Assembly: GCA_963815115.1 (NCBI GenBank)
Contig: CAWFFN010000009.1
Coordinates: forward strand, 416,001-480,000
Origin: an uncultured delta proteobacterium
GTDB taxonomy: Bacteria > Desulfobacterota > Binatia > DP-6
Length of the DNA stretch: 64,000 bases
Direction: 5' to 3'
The position numbers and the translations under genes were made by a program. Positions within the stretch are counted from its first letter, which is position 1. Every line of letters starts with the position of its first letter. This document shows, in pieces, positions 10,919 to 16,924 of the stretch. Below the pieces are notes generated by a model. That model was given only the letters and a program-made list of their open reading frames with translations. It ran no database searches and had not been told where the DNA came from.

Positions 10919-11560
10919 GTGTTGAAGCAGCCGGCGGCGCGAGAGTACAAAGTGAGGCTCTTCGAGCTGAAGGGCCTCGACGGCATCTCCGATCTGCAGA
11001 TCGAGACCCACCTCGAGCTCTACGCCGACTACGTGAACAGCACGAACCGCTTGAACGAGGAGCTCGACGAGCTCGTCCGGAGGAGGAGGGCGAGTACCCC
11101 GGCATATGCCGAGCTCACGCGCCGCCTGGGCTTCGAGTACAACGGGATGCGGCTACACGAGCTCTACTTCGAGAACCTCGCGCCGCGCGCCACCGAGCTG
11201 GGCAGGGGCTCGGTTCTCCATGAGCGGCTGTCCAGCGCCTTCGGACGCTTCGAGAGGTGGCGGCGGGACTTCGTGACGGTGGGCCGGATGCGCGGTGTCG
11301 GCTGGGCGATCCTGTACGAGGATCCCGAGACCCGGCGGCTCAGCAACCACTGGATCACCCTACACGAGCACGGCCACCCGGCGGGATTCCGGCCGCTGCT
11401 CGTGATGGACGTATGGGAGCACGCGTTCATGGTCGACTACGGCCCGACCGAGCGCGCCAAGTATGTCGACGCCTTCTTCGCCAACGTCGACTGGGGTGTG
11501 GTCGAGCGCCGGTTTCGCGCGTCAGGGGAGGCCGATGTGCGCACGGCGGTCCAGCGTTGA
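10919..11560 (+). CDS. sod: Fe/Mn superoxide dismutase family, close paralog of 3910-4578
   Basis: Same motifs, with long identical peptide stretches shared with the first copy. Confidence 0.9.
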   Translation: MLKQPAAREYKVRLFELKGLDGISDLQIETHLELYADYVNSTNRLNEELDELVRRRRASTPAYAELTRRLGFEYNGMRLHELYFENLAPRATELGRGSVLHERLSSAFGRFERWRRDFVTVGRMRGVGWAILYEDPETRRLSNHWITLHEHGHPAGFRPLLVMDVWEHAFMVDYGPTERAKYVDAFFANVDWGVVERRFRASGEADVRTAVQR

Positions 11561-11602
11561 GCCGAACCTGCCGCTCGGTGCACACCGCGTCCGGGCGGAG
11601 CG

Positions 11603-12118
11603 ATGACACGGATCGTGCTGCCGCTCCTCGTCGTCCTGCTGGCGGTGGGCGCGGGCACCGCAGCACTGTCCCAGCACCCGTGGTCGCCCCGGCGCGACGT
11701 CGTGCAGCCCGTGCCGTTCAGCCACCGCGTGCATGCGGGCGAGAACCAGATCCCCTGCCAGTACTGTCACGAGTACGCGCGCCGTTCGCAGACCGCCGGC
11801 GTGCCTCCGATTCAGCGCTGCGTCGGCTGCCACGCGCACGAGGGGCGGGGCGGTTCGCTCGAGGCCGTGACCCAGCCGTGGAGCGACACGCGACAGCCAG
11901 CGTCCGAGATCGTCTGGAACCGCGTGTACACCCTCCCCGACTTCGTGCGCTTCGCGCACCGTCCCCACGTGCTTGCCGGCGTGGAGTGCCAGACCTGCCA
12001 CGGGCCCGTCGAGACGATGGACCGCGTGGTGCCGGTCCACGACATCAACATGGGGTTCTGCATCACCTGCCACACCGAGCGCGGGGTCACGAAGGACTGC
12101 TCGGTGTGCCACTACTAG
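11603..12118 (+). CDS. Pentaheme cytochrome c (ActA/QrcA-like c3 family)
   Basis: Five CxxCH (CQYCH, CVGCH, CQTCH, CITCH, CSVCH); QPVPFSHRVH; N-terminal hydrophobic anchor. Confidence 0.85.
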   Translation: MTRIVLPLLVVLLAVGAGTAALSQHPWSPRRDVVQPVPFSHRVHAGENQIPCQYCHEYARRSQTAGVPPIQRCVGCHAHEGRGGSLEAVTQPWSDTRQPASEIVWNRVYTLPDFVRFAHRPHVLAGVECQTCHGPVETMDRVVPVHDINMGFCITCHTERGVTKDCSVCHY

Positions 12119-12601
12119 GAAGCTCTACGCCGCATGCTTGATGTCGACCTCACAGCCGAGATCGCGCAGCCGCCGCACGAGGCGGCCGATGGTCTTGGCT
12201 GTGTCGCGGCGCGCGCAGCGAGCCGCGCCGAGGTCGCGGTACGGTACGGCGTCGCGGAGCATGTAGTAGCACGCGCCGAGCATGGAGGCCGCAACGGCGA
12301 GGATGGCTCTCCTGGCGCCGCGGCGGGCTTTGAGGCGCAGGAATTGCGCCTGGAGATAGCAGTCCTTCGTGCGGACGGCGGCCCAGGCGGCGGTGACGAG
12401 GGCATCGCGACATGCGTGCAGCCGTGCGCCGTGAGCCAGTCGGCCAGGGCGAGCAGGCGGGTGGTAGCCGTCGCGAAACTCCGGACCTCGTGATGACGCG
12501 GCTCGGACATGCAGCGCACCGCTGTGACGACGGTGTCCTTGTGCACGTCGAGTCCTGCGCACCGCGGATGCAAGATGTCCATCGCGTCCCTCCTTGCCGC
12601 G
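12112..12601 (-). mobile_element. Internally deleted IS110-family element
   Basis: MDILHPRCAGLDVHKD...HVAM joined at ~12403 to LVTAAWAAVRTKDCYLQAQF...KHAA*. Right end TTCCTAGTAG resembles TTACTTGGTAG of the intact IS110. Confidence 0.85.
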
Positions 12602-12692
12602 GCTGATAGGCACGACGAAGGGCCTTTTGCCGCGGAGGCTTACAGAACGCCCCATCCCGGACCTTCGCCGCATTTTCGCCCGCTCCGTAACA
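12602..12692 (-). repeat. 91-bp direct repeat, copy 2
   Basis: 90/91 identical to 563-653. Confidence 0.9.
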
Positions 12693-12694
12693 AG

Positions 12695-12911
12695 TTCCCA
12701 CCGACCCCGGGGGTCGACCCGCGATGGAGGAAACTGGTACGGCGCCGCTGCCGGCACCGAGGTCGAGCAATGTCTGGTGCGCGAAGCCCGCTAACAAGTT
12801 GGACCCGACGTCCCGTGCGCACCCGTGATTGTCGCCACGGACCGCGCGGTCCGCGAGCACGCTTGGTAGACTGCTGCCCCCAGGGACGTCACGCCGGCAG
12901 AACGGGAGGAC
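12695..12911 (+). ncRNA. Candidate IS110 bridge RNA
   Basis: Expected location for IS110-group elements. Hairpins such as CGGACCG-CG-CGGTCCG, and guide-like matches at 12792-12800 and 12862-12871. Exact ends unknown. Confidence 0.7.
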
Positions 12912-12917
12912 GTGACG

Positions 12918-14144
12918 ATGGAGGTCATCCATGCCCAGTGCGCGGGGCTCGACGTACACAAGCAGACCGTGGTGGCCTGCGTGCGGATCACGGGCGCGGG
13001 GGGCGTGCGGCGCGAGGTGCGGACGTTTGCGACGACCGCCGCCGAGCTGCTGGCCTTGCAGGAGTGGCTGGTGGCCGCCGGCTGCACCCATGCCGTGCTG
13101 GAGTCGACGGGCGTCTACTGGAAACCCGTGTGGCACGTGCTCGAGGACCACCTGACCCTCGTGCTGGCCAACGCGACGGCGGTGCGCAATCTGCCCGGGC
13201 GCAAGAGCGACGTGAGCGACGCGCAGTGGCTCGCGGATCTGCTCGCCCATGGGCTGGTGCGCGGCAGCTTCGTGCCGCCCGCGCCGATTCAGGCGTTGCG
13301 CGAGCTGACGCGGACGCGCAAGCAGCTCGGGCGGGAGGTCACCGCCCACAGTCAGCGGATCGAGAAGGTGCTGGAGAGCGCGGACGTGAAGCTCGCCGCG
13401 GTGCTCCGCCCGCTGCTCGGCGTCAGCGGGCGGGCGATCATCGCGGCCCTGGCGGCGGGCGAAACCGATCCCGAGCGCCTCGTGGCGTTAGCCCACCCGC
13501 GGCTGCGGCCGAAGCGGGCCGCGCTGCGGGCCGCGCTGCCCGGGCACGTCCGGCCGCATCATCGCGTCTTGCTGGGTCAGCACCTGCGGGTGGTCGAGAC
13601 GCTGCGGGCGACGATCGCGGAGCTGGATGCCGCGATCGGGGCCGCCGTCGCCCCGTATCGCGCCGCCGTCGACCACCTCGTGACGATGCCCGGCGTGAGC
13701 ACGACGGCGGCGCAGATCCTGGTCGCGGAGATCGGCACGGACATGAGCCGCTTCCCCAGCGCGGGGCATCTCGTCTCCTGGGCGGGGCTGTGTCCGCGCC
13801 AGGACGCGAGTGCGGGCAAGCACCGCTCCACGCGCCTCCGCAAGGGGGCGCCGTGGCTCAAGCCCGTGCTCATTCAGGGCGCGTGGGCAGCGGTGCGAGG
13901 CCGCGAGGGCTACCTCCGCACCCAGTTCCTGCGCCTCAAGCATCGCCGCGGTCCGATGAAGGCCATCGTCGCGGTGGCCGCCTCCATGCTCACCGCCGCC
14001 TATTACATGCTGCGCGACGACCAAGACTATCACGACCTCGGGGCCGCCCACTTCCAGCGCGGCGACCACAACCACCTCGTCGCCGGACTCACCCGCCGCC
14101 TCCACCACCTCGGTTACGAGGTCACGCTCCGCCCCGCCGCCTGA
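12918..14144 (+). CDS. IS110 family transposase/recombinase (DEDD RuvC-like + Tnp domain)
   Basis: GLDVHK, LESTGVYW, RKSDVSDA, CPRQDASAGK; GGAGG RBS. Confidence 0.95.
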   Translation: MEVIHAQCAGLDVHKQTVVACVRITGAGGVRREVRTFATTAAELLALQEWLVAAGCTHAVLESTGVYWKPVWHVLEDHLTLVLANATAVRNLPGRKSDVSDAQWLADLLAHGLVRGSFVPPAPIQALRELTRTRKQLGREVTAHSQRIEKVLESADVKLAAVLRPLLGVSGRAIIAALAAGETDPERLVALAHPRLRPKRAALRAALPGHVRPHHRVLLGQHLRVVETLRATIAELDAAIGAAVAPYRAAVDHLVTMPGVSTTAAQILVAEIGTDMSRFPSAGHLVSWAGLCPRQDASAGKHRSTRLRKGAPWLKPVLIQGAWAAVRGREGYLRTQFLRLKHRRGPMKAIVAVAASMLTAAYYMLRDDQDYHDLGAAHFQRGDHNHLVAGLTRRLHHLGYEVTLRPAA

Positions 14145-14173
14145 CGCCGCGTACCGAGCGAGTTACTTGGTAG

Positions 14174-14394
14174 ACGGCGGGCGGGTCGCGGTGATGCGGC
14201 AGCGGCTGCGGCGCGGCGGGTGGCGGAGTCGCTATCGCTTGCGGAAGGGGACCGTAGAGCCGGTGTTGGGGATCGTGAAACACGTGCGCGGCTTCCGCCA
14301 ATTCCTCCTGCGCGGCGCGGCGAAGGTCGCCGGCGAGTGGAGCCTGGTCACCACGGCGCACAACCTGCACAAGCTGGCGGCCGCATGGGCCTGA
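14174..14394 (+). pseudogene. C-terminal fragment of an IS1182-like DDE transposase
   Basis: YRLRKGTVEPVLGIVKHVRGFRQFLLRG..KV.GEW.L...AHNLHKL. Confidence 0.8.
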
Positions 14395-14500
14395 AGAGGG
14401 GCGCCGAAGAAATCGGGCAGCGAGGGCGGGGTGCCAGCAGGCCATGGTAGACGACCGAGTTGATGCGCGGGCGAGGAGTCAACGCCGCAAGCGTCTCGAG

Positions 14501-14544
14501 GAGCTAGACCAGAGCTAGACCTGAGCTAGGCCAGAGCTAGGCCG
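14501..14544. repeat. Four tandem 11-bp units GAGCTAG(A/G)CCN
   Basis: GAGCTAGACCA GAGCTAGACCT GAGCTAGGCCA GAGCTAGGCCG. Confidence 0.9.
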
Positions 14545-14815
14545 GCGTGAAGACGAGGTAGGTCGTTCCGTCGTGCCACTCACCCTTCAGGGTGGCGAGG
14601 ACGAGGCCGTCGGGTGTGAGGCGAGAGACGGTCCCGTGCAACCCGCGGGCGGAGCACGTAGCGACAGAGGCGCTCGACGCCCGCGCGGTCGTCGGCCGCG
14701 ACCGTGACGTTCATGTGGAGGTCGAAGCCCTCGAGGTGTGCCTGGCACGGGCCGCGGGAGGTGACCCCCACGGCGTCGGGCTCGCGCCCCGCCTGGAAGA
14801 CGCGGGTGCCGGCAC
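14545..14815 (-). pseudogene. Internal fragment of an IS91/ISCR-family rolling-circle (HUH) transposase, frameshifted
   Basis: GFDLH...DRAGVERLCRYVLRP...RLS, then in a shifted frame TPDGLV...LK..WHDGTTYLVFTP. Confidence 0.8.
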
Positions 14816-16924
14816 CTACCGCGGCGTCGCGTCCGGCAGGCCGCCGTCGACCGGGATCGTCGCCCCCGTCGTGGGCGTCTGCCGGGTGGCGAAGAACAGG
14901 ACGGCGCGGGCCACGTGGTCGGCGGTGATCCGCGCCTTCAGGAGGTTGCGGCTGCGGTAGTATTCCTCGAGGCCCGCCTCATCCAGCCCGCGGGCCCGCA
15001 TCCGGTCCGGACCCACCTCGGCCCAGAGGCCCGACCTGCGCGCCCCGTGCGAGAAGACGGCGTCGGGCGCCACCATGTTCACGCGCACGTCGATCTCCGC
15101 CAGCTCGAGGCTCGCGATGCGGGCGAGCTGGTGGGCCGCGGCCTTGGTCGCGCTGTACGCGCCGAACTTGGCGCCCGGCGCGAACACGTTCTTGGTCGAC
15201 ACGAGCACGATGTCGCCCCCCGTTCCCTGGCGCTTCAGGTGGCGCGCCGCCTCGCCGAGCACGGTGAGCGTTCCCTCGACGTTCACCCGCTCGACGCGCC
15301 GGAACGCCTCGAGCTCCAGGTCCGCGAGCCCCGCGACGTGCGCCACACCCGCGTTGACGACCACCAGGTCGACCCCGCCCCAGGTCGTTGCGATGGTCCC
15401 GAACGCCTCGGCGACCGAGGTCGGGTCGGTGACGTCGAGTGGCACCGCCCTGACGCGCGGCCCGAAGGTCGCCGCGAGCTCCGCGACCAGCTCGTCCAGC
15501 GCGTTCCCGGGGAGGTCGGTGGCCGCCACCACGCAGCCCTGCTCGAGCAGCGCCCGGCAGAGGCCGGAGCCGATCGCGCCCGCGGCGCCGGTGACGATCG
15601 CCACCTCGCCCTCGAGCGCGGGCCCTCGCGCCGTGCCCAGCTTGGCGTGCTGGAACGTGTGGTACTCCATGTCGAAGAGCTCCGCTTCCGGCAGGCCTTC
15701 GTAGGTGCCGATCGCGGCCACCTGGCTCTTCACGGCGAGCGTGTGGGCGGTGACGTCGCGTGCGATGGTCGCCGCGCGCAGATCGGGCGCGGCGCAGAGC
15801 GCGCCGAGGCCCGGCAGGAGGACCACGCGCGGCAACGCGTCGATCCGGCCGACGCCGTGGCCGAGCCGGTTCGTGTGCCGCTCGAGGTACGCCTGGTAGT
15901 CGGCGGCATAGCGCCGCACGGCTGCGCGGATCTGCTCGGCCAGCGCGGCGTGGTCCTGGTACGCCGGTGACTCGATCCAGAGGGGGAACGCCTTGGTGCG
16001 GATCAGGTGATCCGAGGTGAGCGGCGGCGTCAGGGCGGCGGCACGACCGCCGTCGCCGTCGACGAACTCGAGGACCTCGGGTGTGACGAGCGGGAGGACG
16101 ATCACGCGACGATGCGGCCGGTCGGGATCGCCCGTGGGCTCGGCCAGGGCCCCGCGCAGCACCGGGGCCACCGCGCGCACGCGCGCCAGCGCCGTCTCCA
16201 ACCCGCCCGGGATCGCGACGATCGAACGTCCGGTGCCCTTCCGCGCCAGGTACTCCTCCGCGCGCGTCACGAGGTCGATCATGGCCTCGTAGGAGGCCCG
16301 TGCGCTCGGCCCCCAGGTCACGAGCCCGTGCCGCATCCACACCATGGCTCGAGCGTCCGGGTGCGCCTCGTACGCATCCGCGACGGCGCGCGCGAGCTGG
16401 AAGCCCGGCCGCACGTAGCCCAGCACCGCCACCTGACCACCGAGCGCCTCGCGTACCACCCGCTCCCCGTCCGTCTGGTTCGTCAGCGCCAGGACGGCGT
16501 CGGCGTGCGTGTGGTCGACGTACCTGGCGGGGAGGAACGCGTGCACGAGCGTCTCGACCGAGGGCGTGGCGCTCCGCGCGTCGAAGAGGTGCGTACGCAG
16601 CTCGTTCGCCATCGCTTCGTCATCGAGCCGCGGCAGCGCCCGCAGCCTCCGCAGGTAGCCGAGGTCGAGGCCGGGAAGCCCCTCCGGCTCGATGGTGGCG
16701 AGATCGTGGCCCGAGGCCTTCACGTAGAGCGCGGGGACCTGCTCGCCGAGACGGTTCACGAACGTCCCCTTGACCGACGTGTTGCCGCCGCCGTGGAGCA
16801 CGAGGCGGTCGTCGGCGCCGAGCAGGCGGCTCGTGTAGGTGCGGAGCGCGAGGTCCTCGCCCCAGCGCGCGCCGTAGCGCGCGACGAAGCTCGCGGCCTC
16901 GTCGTCCGACCAGCGTGAGCGCAT
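14816..16924 (-). CDS. Bifunctional class II aldolase / short-chain dehydrogenase (rhamnulose-1-phosphate aldolase-SDR type)
   Basis: LVLHGGGNTSVK, PSVETLVH, VDHTHAD; C-terminal TGAAGAIG and YSATK. Confidence 0.9.
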   Translation of the reverse strand: MRSRWSDDEAASFVARYGARWGEDLALRTYTSRLLGADDRLVLHGGGNTSVKGTFVNRLGEQVPALYVKASGHDLATIEPEGLPGLDLGYLRRLRALPRLDDEAMANELRTHLFDARSATPSVETLVHAFLPARYVDHTHADAVLALTNQTDGERVVREALGGQVAVLGYVRPGFQLARAVADAYEAHPDARAMVWMRHGLVTWGPSARASYEAMIDLVTRAEEYLARKGTGRSIVAIPGGLETALARVRAVAPVLRGALAEPTGDPDRPHRRVIVLPLVTPEVLEFVDGDGGRAAALTPPLTSDHLIRTKAFPLWIESPAYQDHAALAEQIRAAVRRYAADYQAYLERHTNRLGHGVGRIDALPRVVLLPGLGALCAAPDLRAATIARDVTAHTLAVKSQVAAIGTYEGLPEAELFDMEYHTFQHAKLGTARGPALEGEVAIVTGAAGAIGSGLCRALLEQGCVVAATDLPGNALDELVAELAATFGPRVRAVPLDVTDPTSVAEAFGTIATTWGGVDLVVVNAGVAHVAGLADLELEAFRRVERVNVEGTLTVLGEAARHLKRQGTGGDIVLVSTKNVFAPGAKFGAYSATKAAAHQLARIASLELAEIDVRVNMVAPDAVFSHGARRSGLWAEVGPDRMRARGLDEAGLEEYYRSRNLLKARITADHVARAVLFFATRQTPTTGATIPVDGGLPDATPR

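Follow-up and report, generated by a model that had tools for sequence, protein, structure and literature searches.

The window analysed here, a stretch of 64,000 nucleotides from an uncultured delta proteobacterium (GTDB lineage Bacteria; Desulfobacterota; Binatia; DP-6; assembly GCA_963815115.1, contig CAWFFN010000009.1, positions 416,001 to 480,000 of the forward strand), harbors an insertion sequence at 12695-14171. Its recombinase gene is flanked by non-coding ends of very different length, with 223 nt upstream of the gene and 27 nt downstream. The element is very probably an intact member of the IS110/IS1111 superfamily carrying in its left end a bridge RNA (seekRNA) with two loops in tandem. 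An earlier note on this DNA had assigned the element to the IS110 family and placed an RNA-guide region in its left end, both of which are borne out by the protein profiles and by the covariation of the guides with the junctions; moreover, three of the four guides that it assigned are correct in place.

The gene product is assigned by its sequence to the IS110-family recombinases of the DEDD-plus-serine type. It matches PF01548 with 87.3 bits (cut-off 29), the C-terminal domain PF02371 (Transposase_20) with 76.8 bits (cut-off 21.3), and the NCBIfam model NF033542 with 257.8 bits (cut-off 140). Residues D12, E62, D98, D101 and S298 are invariant in an alignment of five sequences, and E62, D98, D101 and S298 align with the matching residues of IS621 (8wt6), in agreement with the earlier claim that the DEDD residues and the Tnp serine are intact; D12, part of a GLDVH motif, lies inside the Pfam match yet outside the 8wt6 alignment. 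A phmmer search of the PDB chains (8wt6 included) with the recombinase alone gave no match at 1e-3, and the profile of five sequences reached IS621 8wt6 with an E-value of 1.4e-11.

Four full copies of the element, 99-100% identical, are present in the genome. All of them are directly preceded by a 91-bp repeat (GCTGATAGG…CCGTAACA), so that the left half-site is identical in 4/4 copies, and all have AG at both junctions, while the right flanks differ (AG-AC, AG-GC, AG-AA and AG-CT). The shared left repeat, the AG at both junctions and the varied right flanks together define the element as 12695-14171 with an AG core (Table 1), and the insertion site is defined chiefly through its left half. 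Matches to the repeat number 19 in the genome and are grouped in two clusters (C5, 1.376-1.419 Mb; C9, 318-429 kb), mostly in one orientation and in two sequence variants; the copies in the window lie at 12602-12692 and 563-653. Seven of the 14 solo copies listed end in TAACA+AG. The element thus accounts for four identical insertions at this repeat, which is thereby marked as an insertion hot spot. Judged from its letters, it is apparently intact and was probably active recently.

Table 1. Features of the insertion sequence and of its left-end RNA (positions are those of the window)
Feature	Position	Strand	Basis or remark
91-bp genomic repeat, 3' end …CCGTAACA, left half of the insertion site	12602-12692	+	Precedes 4/4 copies
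Core dinucleotide AG, left copy (CT on the minus strand)	12693-12694	+	AG at both junctions, 4/4 copies
Insertion sequence	12695-14171	+	1477 bp without core; copy alignment and flanks
Left terminus TTCCCACC with local hairpin 12703-12715	12695-12715	+	65 left ends
Box S1 (GACCCGCGAT), internal left-end segment	12716-12725	+	Mirrored by S2
GAAAC box, left subterminal inverted repeat, within GGAGGAAACT	12730-12734	+	
Outer stem P0	12748-12755 with 12893-12900		8 pairs, 85.7% paired, 6/8 changed on both sides
Stem P1 (GGUC/GACC), closes the target loop	12761-12764 with 12802-12805		100% paired in 65 sequences, nearly invariant
5' strand of the target loop, ends in CU	12765-12775	+	Complementary to the plus strand at core and right flank
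Target-loop inner hairpin (UGGUGC…GCCCG)	within 12775-12790		98.5% paired, almost invariant
Guide A, 3' strand of the target loop	12792-12800	+	Sense copy of left flank TAACA, core AG and the element's first TT
Stem P2, closes the donor loop	12807-12813 with 12884-12890		98.2% paired, 6/7 pairs changed on both sides
Box S2 (CACCCGUGAU), 5' strand of the donor loop	12820-12829	+	Sense copy of S1
Donor-loop inner hairpin	12838-12853		73% paired, 6/6 pairs changed on both sides; poorly aligned region
Guide B, 3' strand of the donor loop	12862-12871	+	Sense copy of right end (C)TTGGT and core AG
DEDD/serine recombinase gene, 408 aa	12918-14144	+	Pfam, NCBIfam, alignments
GTTAC, right subterminal repeat (GTTTC in most relatives)	14162-14166	+	5 nt from the core
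Core AG, right copy	14172-14173	+	Present in 4/4 copies

Both junctions recur exactly inside the left non-coding end, as had been noticed earlier. The motif TAACAAGTT spans the left junction (12688-12696) and is found again at 12792-12800, the segment called guide A below, whereas CTTGGTAGAC is found at 12862-12871 (guide B) and again across the right junction (14166-14175). Each motif occurs exactly twice on the two strands of the window, for a chance expectation of 0.02 matches for TAACAAGTT and 0.06 for CTTGGTAGAC, and two matches were reached in 0/100 dinucleotide shuffles for either of them.

The same relation was followed in 87 loci, namely the window, six relatives found in genomes and 80 metagenome loci, the latter being the best 80 of 575 relatives (54-64% protein identity); the left ends of these relatives can be aligned well. 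Guide A was recognised in 73 of these loci, and guide B could be compared with the right junction in 62. The right junction was located independently of guide B, by the motif G[TC]T[TA]C-N5-AG, while the left junction was located with guide A itself, whose upstream copy is complete (9/9) in 56/73 loci, matches at 8/9 in 12 and at 7 positions or fewer in five. This upstream copy always abuts the conserved left terminus TTnnCCACC, a pattern that is kept across 65 left ends together with a hairpin of variable sequence. Moreover, the last two nucleotides of guide A, which extend it beyond the core, are the first two of the element in 58/62 loci, including 52 with TT/TT, three with TC/TC and three with TG/TG. 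On the other side, the guide B 7-mer equivalent to 12863-12869 equals the right end plus AG at 7/7 positions in 48/62 loci and at 6/7 in the other 14. Per-position z-scores of the guide-junction covariation range from 8 to 13. For example, the RNAs of the loci L068 and L111 are almost identical, also in the 5' strand of the target loop, and differ in guide A (…TTGTT-AG versus …TGACT-AG), each guide A matching its own left flank; the pair looks like a natural reprogramming of one guide only. The earlier note had suggested a covariance model of homologous left ends as a check; guide-flank covariation and a shared fold are both found in the family.

The 5' strand of the target loop is variable in the family and usually ends in CU. 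Its complementarity to flank positions +1/+2/+3 amounts to 0.46/0.48/0.41 in 56 loci, against 0.28-0.29 after shuffling, and these values were reached in a fraction of 0.001/0.000/0.022 of 1000 shuffles; when the complementarity is scanned in windows, it peaks at exactly the register of core plus right flank (z 5.7). This right-flank signal is weak. The segment GCAATGTCT, previously read as a target guide, falls on this strand and keeps that role, with a weak complement to the right flank across the family. Two-nucleotide handshakes had also been ascribed to the guides: both 3'-side segments and a handshake-like extension on the target side are supported (58/62, as given above), and no comparable signal is seen on the donor side. 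There, the base after AG in the donor loop is an invariant A, which equals the flank in 16/60 loci, about as expected by chance, and the AC that follows the core AG of guide B matches the flank of the window copy only.

The fold of the left-end RNA was counted on a trimmed alignment of 65 sequences, with helices taken from RNAalifold and from a column-pair scan. Overall, 90.3% of the cells are paired versus 80.2% after shuffling, a share that 0/500 shuffles reached, and the covariation score is 0.357 versus 0.172 (0/500); partners slid out of register are at most 51% paired. The target loop (12761-12805) and the donor loop (12807-12890) are adjacent and both lie within the outer stem P0; they are arranged in tandem, target then donor, and are not nested. 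The GGTC/GACC stem drawn by hand in the earlier analysis is P1 of Table 1.

The donor side has a less usual organisation. While guide B copies the right end, the 5' strand of the donor loop carries a box, S2, that is a sense copy of S1, located 21-31 nt inside the left end on the strand also read by guide B. The two boxes share 8/10 bases in the window, and their identity covaries in register, with z 6.1-7.8 at five column pairs (500 shuffles each). The relation is kept with other letters (ACAACGAA at both places) in relatives that have the RNA downstream of the gene. A search for an RNA partner complementary to S1 or S2 gave no antidiagonal signal and scattered column pairs only; a sense copy of the element's DNA is the signature of donor pairing. 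Close to S1 lies the GAAAC box, which with its right-end counterpart reads GAAAC/GTTTC in 50/58 loci, GAAGC/GCTTC in 6/58 and GAAAC/GTTAC in 2/58, the last being the clade of the window element. The complementarity spans 5 bp, and up to 7 bp (ATGAAAC/GTTTCAT) in some loci; the pairing is not extended into the five bases beside the core (observed 0.26-0.78 versus shuffled 0.30-0.76). We tentatively consider, as a rather doubtful possibility, that the donor loop reads one strand twice, at the right end with its core and at S1, that the left tip and its hairpin may be looped out between the two, and that the GAAAC/GTTTC repeat may clamp the two ends. If true, such a geometry would be unlike the two-strand, core-centred reading of IS621.

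A working scheme can be outlined from these features. The 223-nt left end would give rise to a bridge RNA, bound by the recombinase, with a core fold at 12743-12907 in which P0 encloses the two tandem loops. The 3' strand of the target loop would pair with the minus strand of the left flank and core, and its extension would pair with the left tip of the element after strand exchange, while the 5' strand, ending in CU, would pair with the plus strand over the core and the first bases of the right flank. The donor loop would read the element ends, its 3' strand being a sense copy of the right end plus AG and its 5' strand mirroring S1, the neighbour of the short subterminal inverted repeat whose left half is GAAAC and whose right half is GTTAC/GTTTC. 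The analogy with IS621 suggests that the excised circle would be guided to a site that ends in TAACA-AG, provided in this genome by the 3' terminus of the 91-bp repeat, and that strands would be exchanged at the AG/CT core without target duplication. Since the order of the guides is reversed as in IS1111-type elements, the strand exchanged first is most likely the one antisense to the recombinase gene, cut after CT.

This polarity can be compared with that of known systems. PMC11208158 and PMC11208160 describe IS621 as having a 5' guide that pairs to the left of the core with the bottom strand, and a 3' guide that pairs to its right with the top strand and is followed by the handshake dinucleotide. 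By contrast, each 3' strand of the window element copies its junction in the sense orientation, and the target loop has an antisense 5' strand, an order reversed with respect to IS621; turning the DNA by 180 degrees brings everything into the IS621 scheme, and the core then reads CT. The inverted polarity claimed in the earlier note is therefore real in the sense of being reversed relative to IS621, but it is not new, having been published for the seekRNAs of IS1111-type elements (PMC11187229). In these seekRNAs the top-strand match comes first, while the IS110 member ISEc21 shows the reverse order (PMC11187229; Table 1 of PMC13604230).

Several traits are shared with IS621 (PMC11208160; PMC11208158): the RNA is encoded in the left end and precedes the gene of a DEDD-plus-serine recombinase; its two internal loops follow one another, the target loop first and the donor loop second, and each consists of a closing stem, guides on its 5' and 3' sides and an inner hairpin; the guides include the core dinucleotide, with apparently no target duplication; and the 3' guide of the target loop has a 2-nt extension matching the donor. 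The differences are that the guide order is reversed, the 3' strands of our element pairing with the strand antisense to the gene, that the core on the gene strand is AG here and CT in IS621, that an outer stem encloses both loops, that the donor loop copies with its 5' strand a box inside the left end and not core-adjoining sequence, and that the proteins are very distant. With the IS1111 seekRNAs of ISEc11, ISPa11, ISKpn4 and ISPst6 (PMC11187229) the element shares a top-strand complement placed 5' of the bottom-strand match, as well as subterminal inverted repeats, and relatives of it have this RNA fold on the downstream side of the gene, the placement found in IS1111 members. It differs from them by the RNA upstream of its own gene, where IS1111 members have a long non-coding region downstream, and by the inverted repeat, which measures 5-7 bp and is set back from the tips by about 35 nt on the left and by 5 nt plus the core on the right, whereas IS1111 repeats usually measure 11-13 bp, with spacings of 7 bp at the left tip and 3 bp at the right one (PMC11187229). 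The likeness to IS1111 concerns guide order and subterminal repeats; no named IS1111 reference was present among the 439 plasmid records listed, mostly annotated as 'IS110 family transposase'. A few IS1111-type elements, for example ISMtsp17, are described with an upstream non-coding region in PMC11187229, and ISMtsp17, compared here by that description, resembles the window element in this classification and in this region; within the literature searched it was mentioned only in PMC11187229 and its preprint. Durrant and colleagues (PMC11208160) also state that bridge RNAs are of diverse structure and that the donor is bound in a multi-loop by many RNAs of the IS1111 group. We regard the window element as a known kind of element with some unusual donor-side features.

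Small shares of the stretch are present in many soil sequencing runs; the runs compared with it were X1, X2, X17 and X19. One DNA contig of low depth (2.05) from a relative about 90% identical runs from the 3' end of the gene through the right end and a single AG into the left end, and could represent a circle or a tandem copy. Contigs of relatives from RNA libraries cover the equivalents of 12684-12873 and 12734-12943; the former carries a dissimilar flank upstream and shows adapter letters after 12873.

Several observations weigh against a functional bridge RNA of this design, or reduce the force of the evidence for it. The RNA-library contigs may be read-through or DNA carry-over and show no transcript ends, and a scan of 12550-14300 found neither a sigma-70-like promoter nor a terminator. 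As a single sequence, the left end folds no more stably than its shuffles (z 0.51); P1 and the target-loop hairpin, being almost invariant, are beyond the reach of covariation; and a search of 11500-15500 against Rfam gave three matches, all far below the gathering scores, hence no family. Kinship among the family sequences inflates the significance against shuffles, and the 56/73 count for guide A is not independent, given how the left junction was located. Concerning the target, the sequence TAACA-AG-ACATTGC predicted in the earlier note is right for the left half and core in 4/4 copies, but only 0-2 bases of its right flank ACATTGC are matched in the four flanks of this genome, and the right-flank requirement appears loose. 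On the donor side, the 5' strand has no match to the left tip, unlike an IS621-type guide, and the GAAGC/GCTTC double change is probably one evolutionary event, because its six loci share a large insertion.

Some of these points could be taken to mean that the internal junction copies act as sites in the DNA and not as RNA, being either protein-binding repeats in a subterminal position or traces left by earlier insertions. The missing promoter in 12550-14300 and the fold z of 0.51 speak for such sites. We nevertheless find this barely credible: the copies stand at fixed places within a covarying fold, in the 3' strands of its two stem-closed loops, which indicates a constraint at the RNA level, and they change with the flanks in nearly identical elements (L068 versus L111); in addition, NCBIfam names the family of the recombinase an RNA-guided transposase, and the same architecture has been established experimentally for IS621, ISEc21 and ISEc11. 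The nested arrangement proposed in the earlier note, in which a multibranch donor loop encloses the target loop and GGAGGAAACT (12726-12735) and CTTGGTAGAC serve as the left-tip and right-end guides, is in turn highly improbable. It draws on the match of GGAGGAAACT to the reverse complement of AG-TTCCCACC at 8/10 positions, and on a stem between 12705-13 and 12877-85 that can indeed be drawn in the window sequence. Across the family, however, 12703-12715 forms a local hairpin in all aligned relatives and the second arm of that stem abuts P2, which closes the donor loop alone, directly after the target loop, with nearly all of its pairs compensated. Nor does GGAGGAAACT behave as a left-end guide: after ATGAAAC the box continues with G, T, A or C, and with this variable base there is no conserved CT core; its GAAAC is instead complementary, in 56/58 loci, to the GTTTC lying 5 nt inside the right end; and left-tip positions 3-9 covary with none of the RNA columns, those of the left terminus itself excepted. 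What speaks for part of the idea is that this conserved box, with its partner on the donor side, sits 5' of the target loop, and therefore some donor recognition would take place outside the donor loop proper.

The tandem arrangement with IS1111-like strand order has also to be weighed against an IS621-like polarity, with the plus strand exchanged first, guide A being an LTG-like guide placed on the 3' side and its extension having no handshake role. The partner of guide A, the bottom strand at left flank plus core, is indeed also that of the LTG of IS621, and the 5' strand pairs with the top strand on the right, like the RTG. This polarity is unlikely all the same, since after rotation by 180 degrees all features fit IS621 (5' CU, 3' 2-nt extension, CT core), the extension covaries with the donor tip through three letter pairs, and IS1111-type seekRNAs share the guide order of the element (PMC11187229).

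The position of the RNA relative to the gene varies among relatives. The core fold was turned into a covariance model, R1, which in a search of 34 loci matched upstream of the gene in L005, L007, L040, L041, L042, L050, L055 and L058, and weakly in L053 and L056. It matched downstream in 13 loci with 34-45% protein identity (L043, L044, L045, L047, L048, L049, L051, L052, L059, L061, L062, L064 and L066). A solo left-end fragment, L008, was also matched. The model has one match in the window and one, of 143 bits, upstream of the gene on a Cupriavidus necator plasmid; the Methylobacterium match L159 is truncated and has no R1 match. Relatives of the downstream type keep the left terminus, the hairpin and ATGAAAC at the left end and GTTTCAT plus about 5 nt at the right end; both of their 3' guides likewise have sense polarity, and their core is AA. 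Upstream and downstream types are intermixed in a FastTree phylogeny of 36 recombinases, which would therefore imply at least two changes of RNA side under parsimony; this tree, read without support values, is a hint only, the badly extracted protein of L005 forming a long branch that distorts the midpoint root. As part of the same tentative joint reading as the looped-out left tip, the RNA module appears to have switched gene side at least twice with fold and polarity kept.

Bridge and seek RNAs are under development as programmable recombinases, and nearly all mechanistic work concerns IS621-like elements. The present family joins an upstream, IS621-like position and tandem loops with the strand order of the IS1111 type, and constitutes a well-sampled natural series of more than 60 left ends with readable guides, including cases of natural reprogramming. 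It makes testable what sets the polarity of strand exchange and how the left end of the donor is recognised.

Two relatives show particular insertion contexts. In L032, a locus of an Acidobacteria metagenome-assembled genome (MAG), the insertion lies at the centre of a long imperfect palindrome, with CACAGAG-type repeats on the left flank and their complement on the right flank, which suggests a REP-like target. In L127 the target half-site and the core are duplicated (…CCCGTCTCTAG twice) ahead of a normal terminus, possibly a trace of tandem or repeated insertion. In the genome itself, one locus (L004, G000:C9:364537-369100) has the right end and AG followed immediately by another 91-bp repeat, a joint also found in one contig of sequencing run X1; the recombinase of L004 reads only 87% identical to that of the remaining three copies.

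The nature of the 91-bp repeat was looked at separately. Neither of its strands gave a fold signal when treated as single-stranded DNA, Rfam has no match to it, terminal repeats are not obvious, and integron attC-like core sites were not seen by eye. Left of it, on the minus strand, lies a broken IS110-like gene (12115-12582) with an intact N-terminus followed by a frame change and an internal deletion, whose start codon is 19 nt from the other end of the repeat. The repeat was considered as the end of this broken element and the idea was rejected, because the gene is unique in the genome. On the other side, the right flank (14167-14394, plus strand) codes for the C-terminal remnant of a DDE transposase (48.2 bits to PF13751, over profile positions 63-124 of 125), which places the element in a patch of mobile-element debris. 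Beside the broken gene ends an open reading frame (11603-12118, plus strand) whose start resembles a signal peptide and which contains several CxxCH motifs, features that suggest a multihaem cytochrome c.

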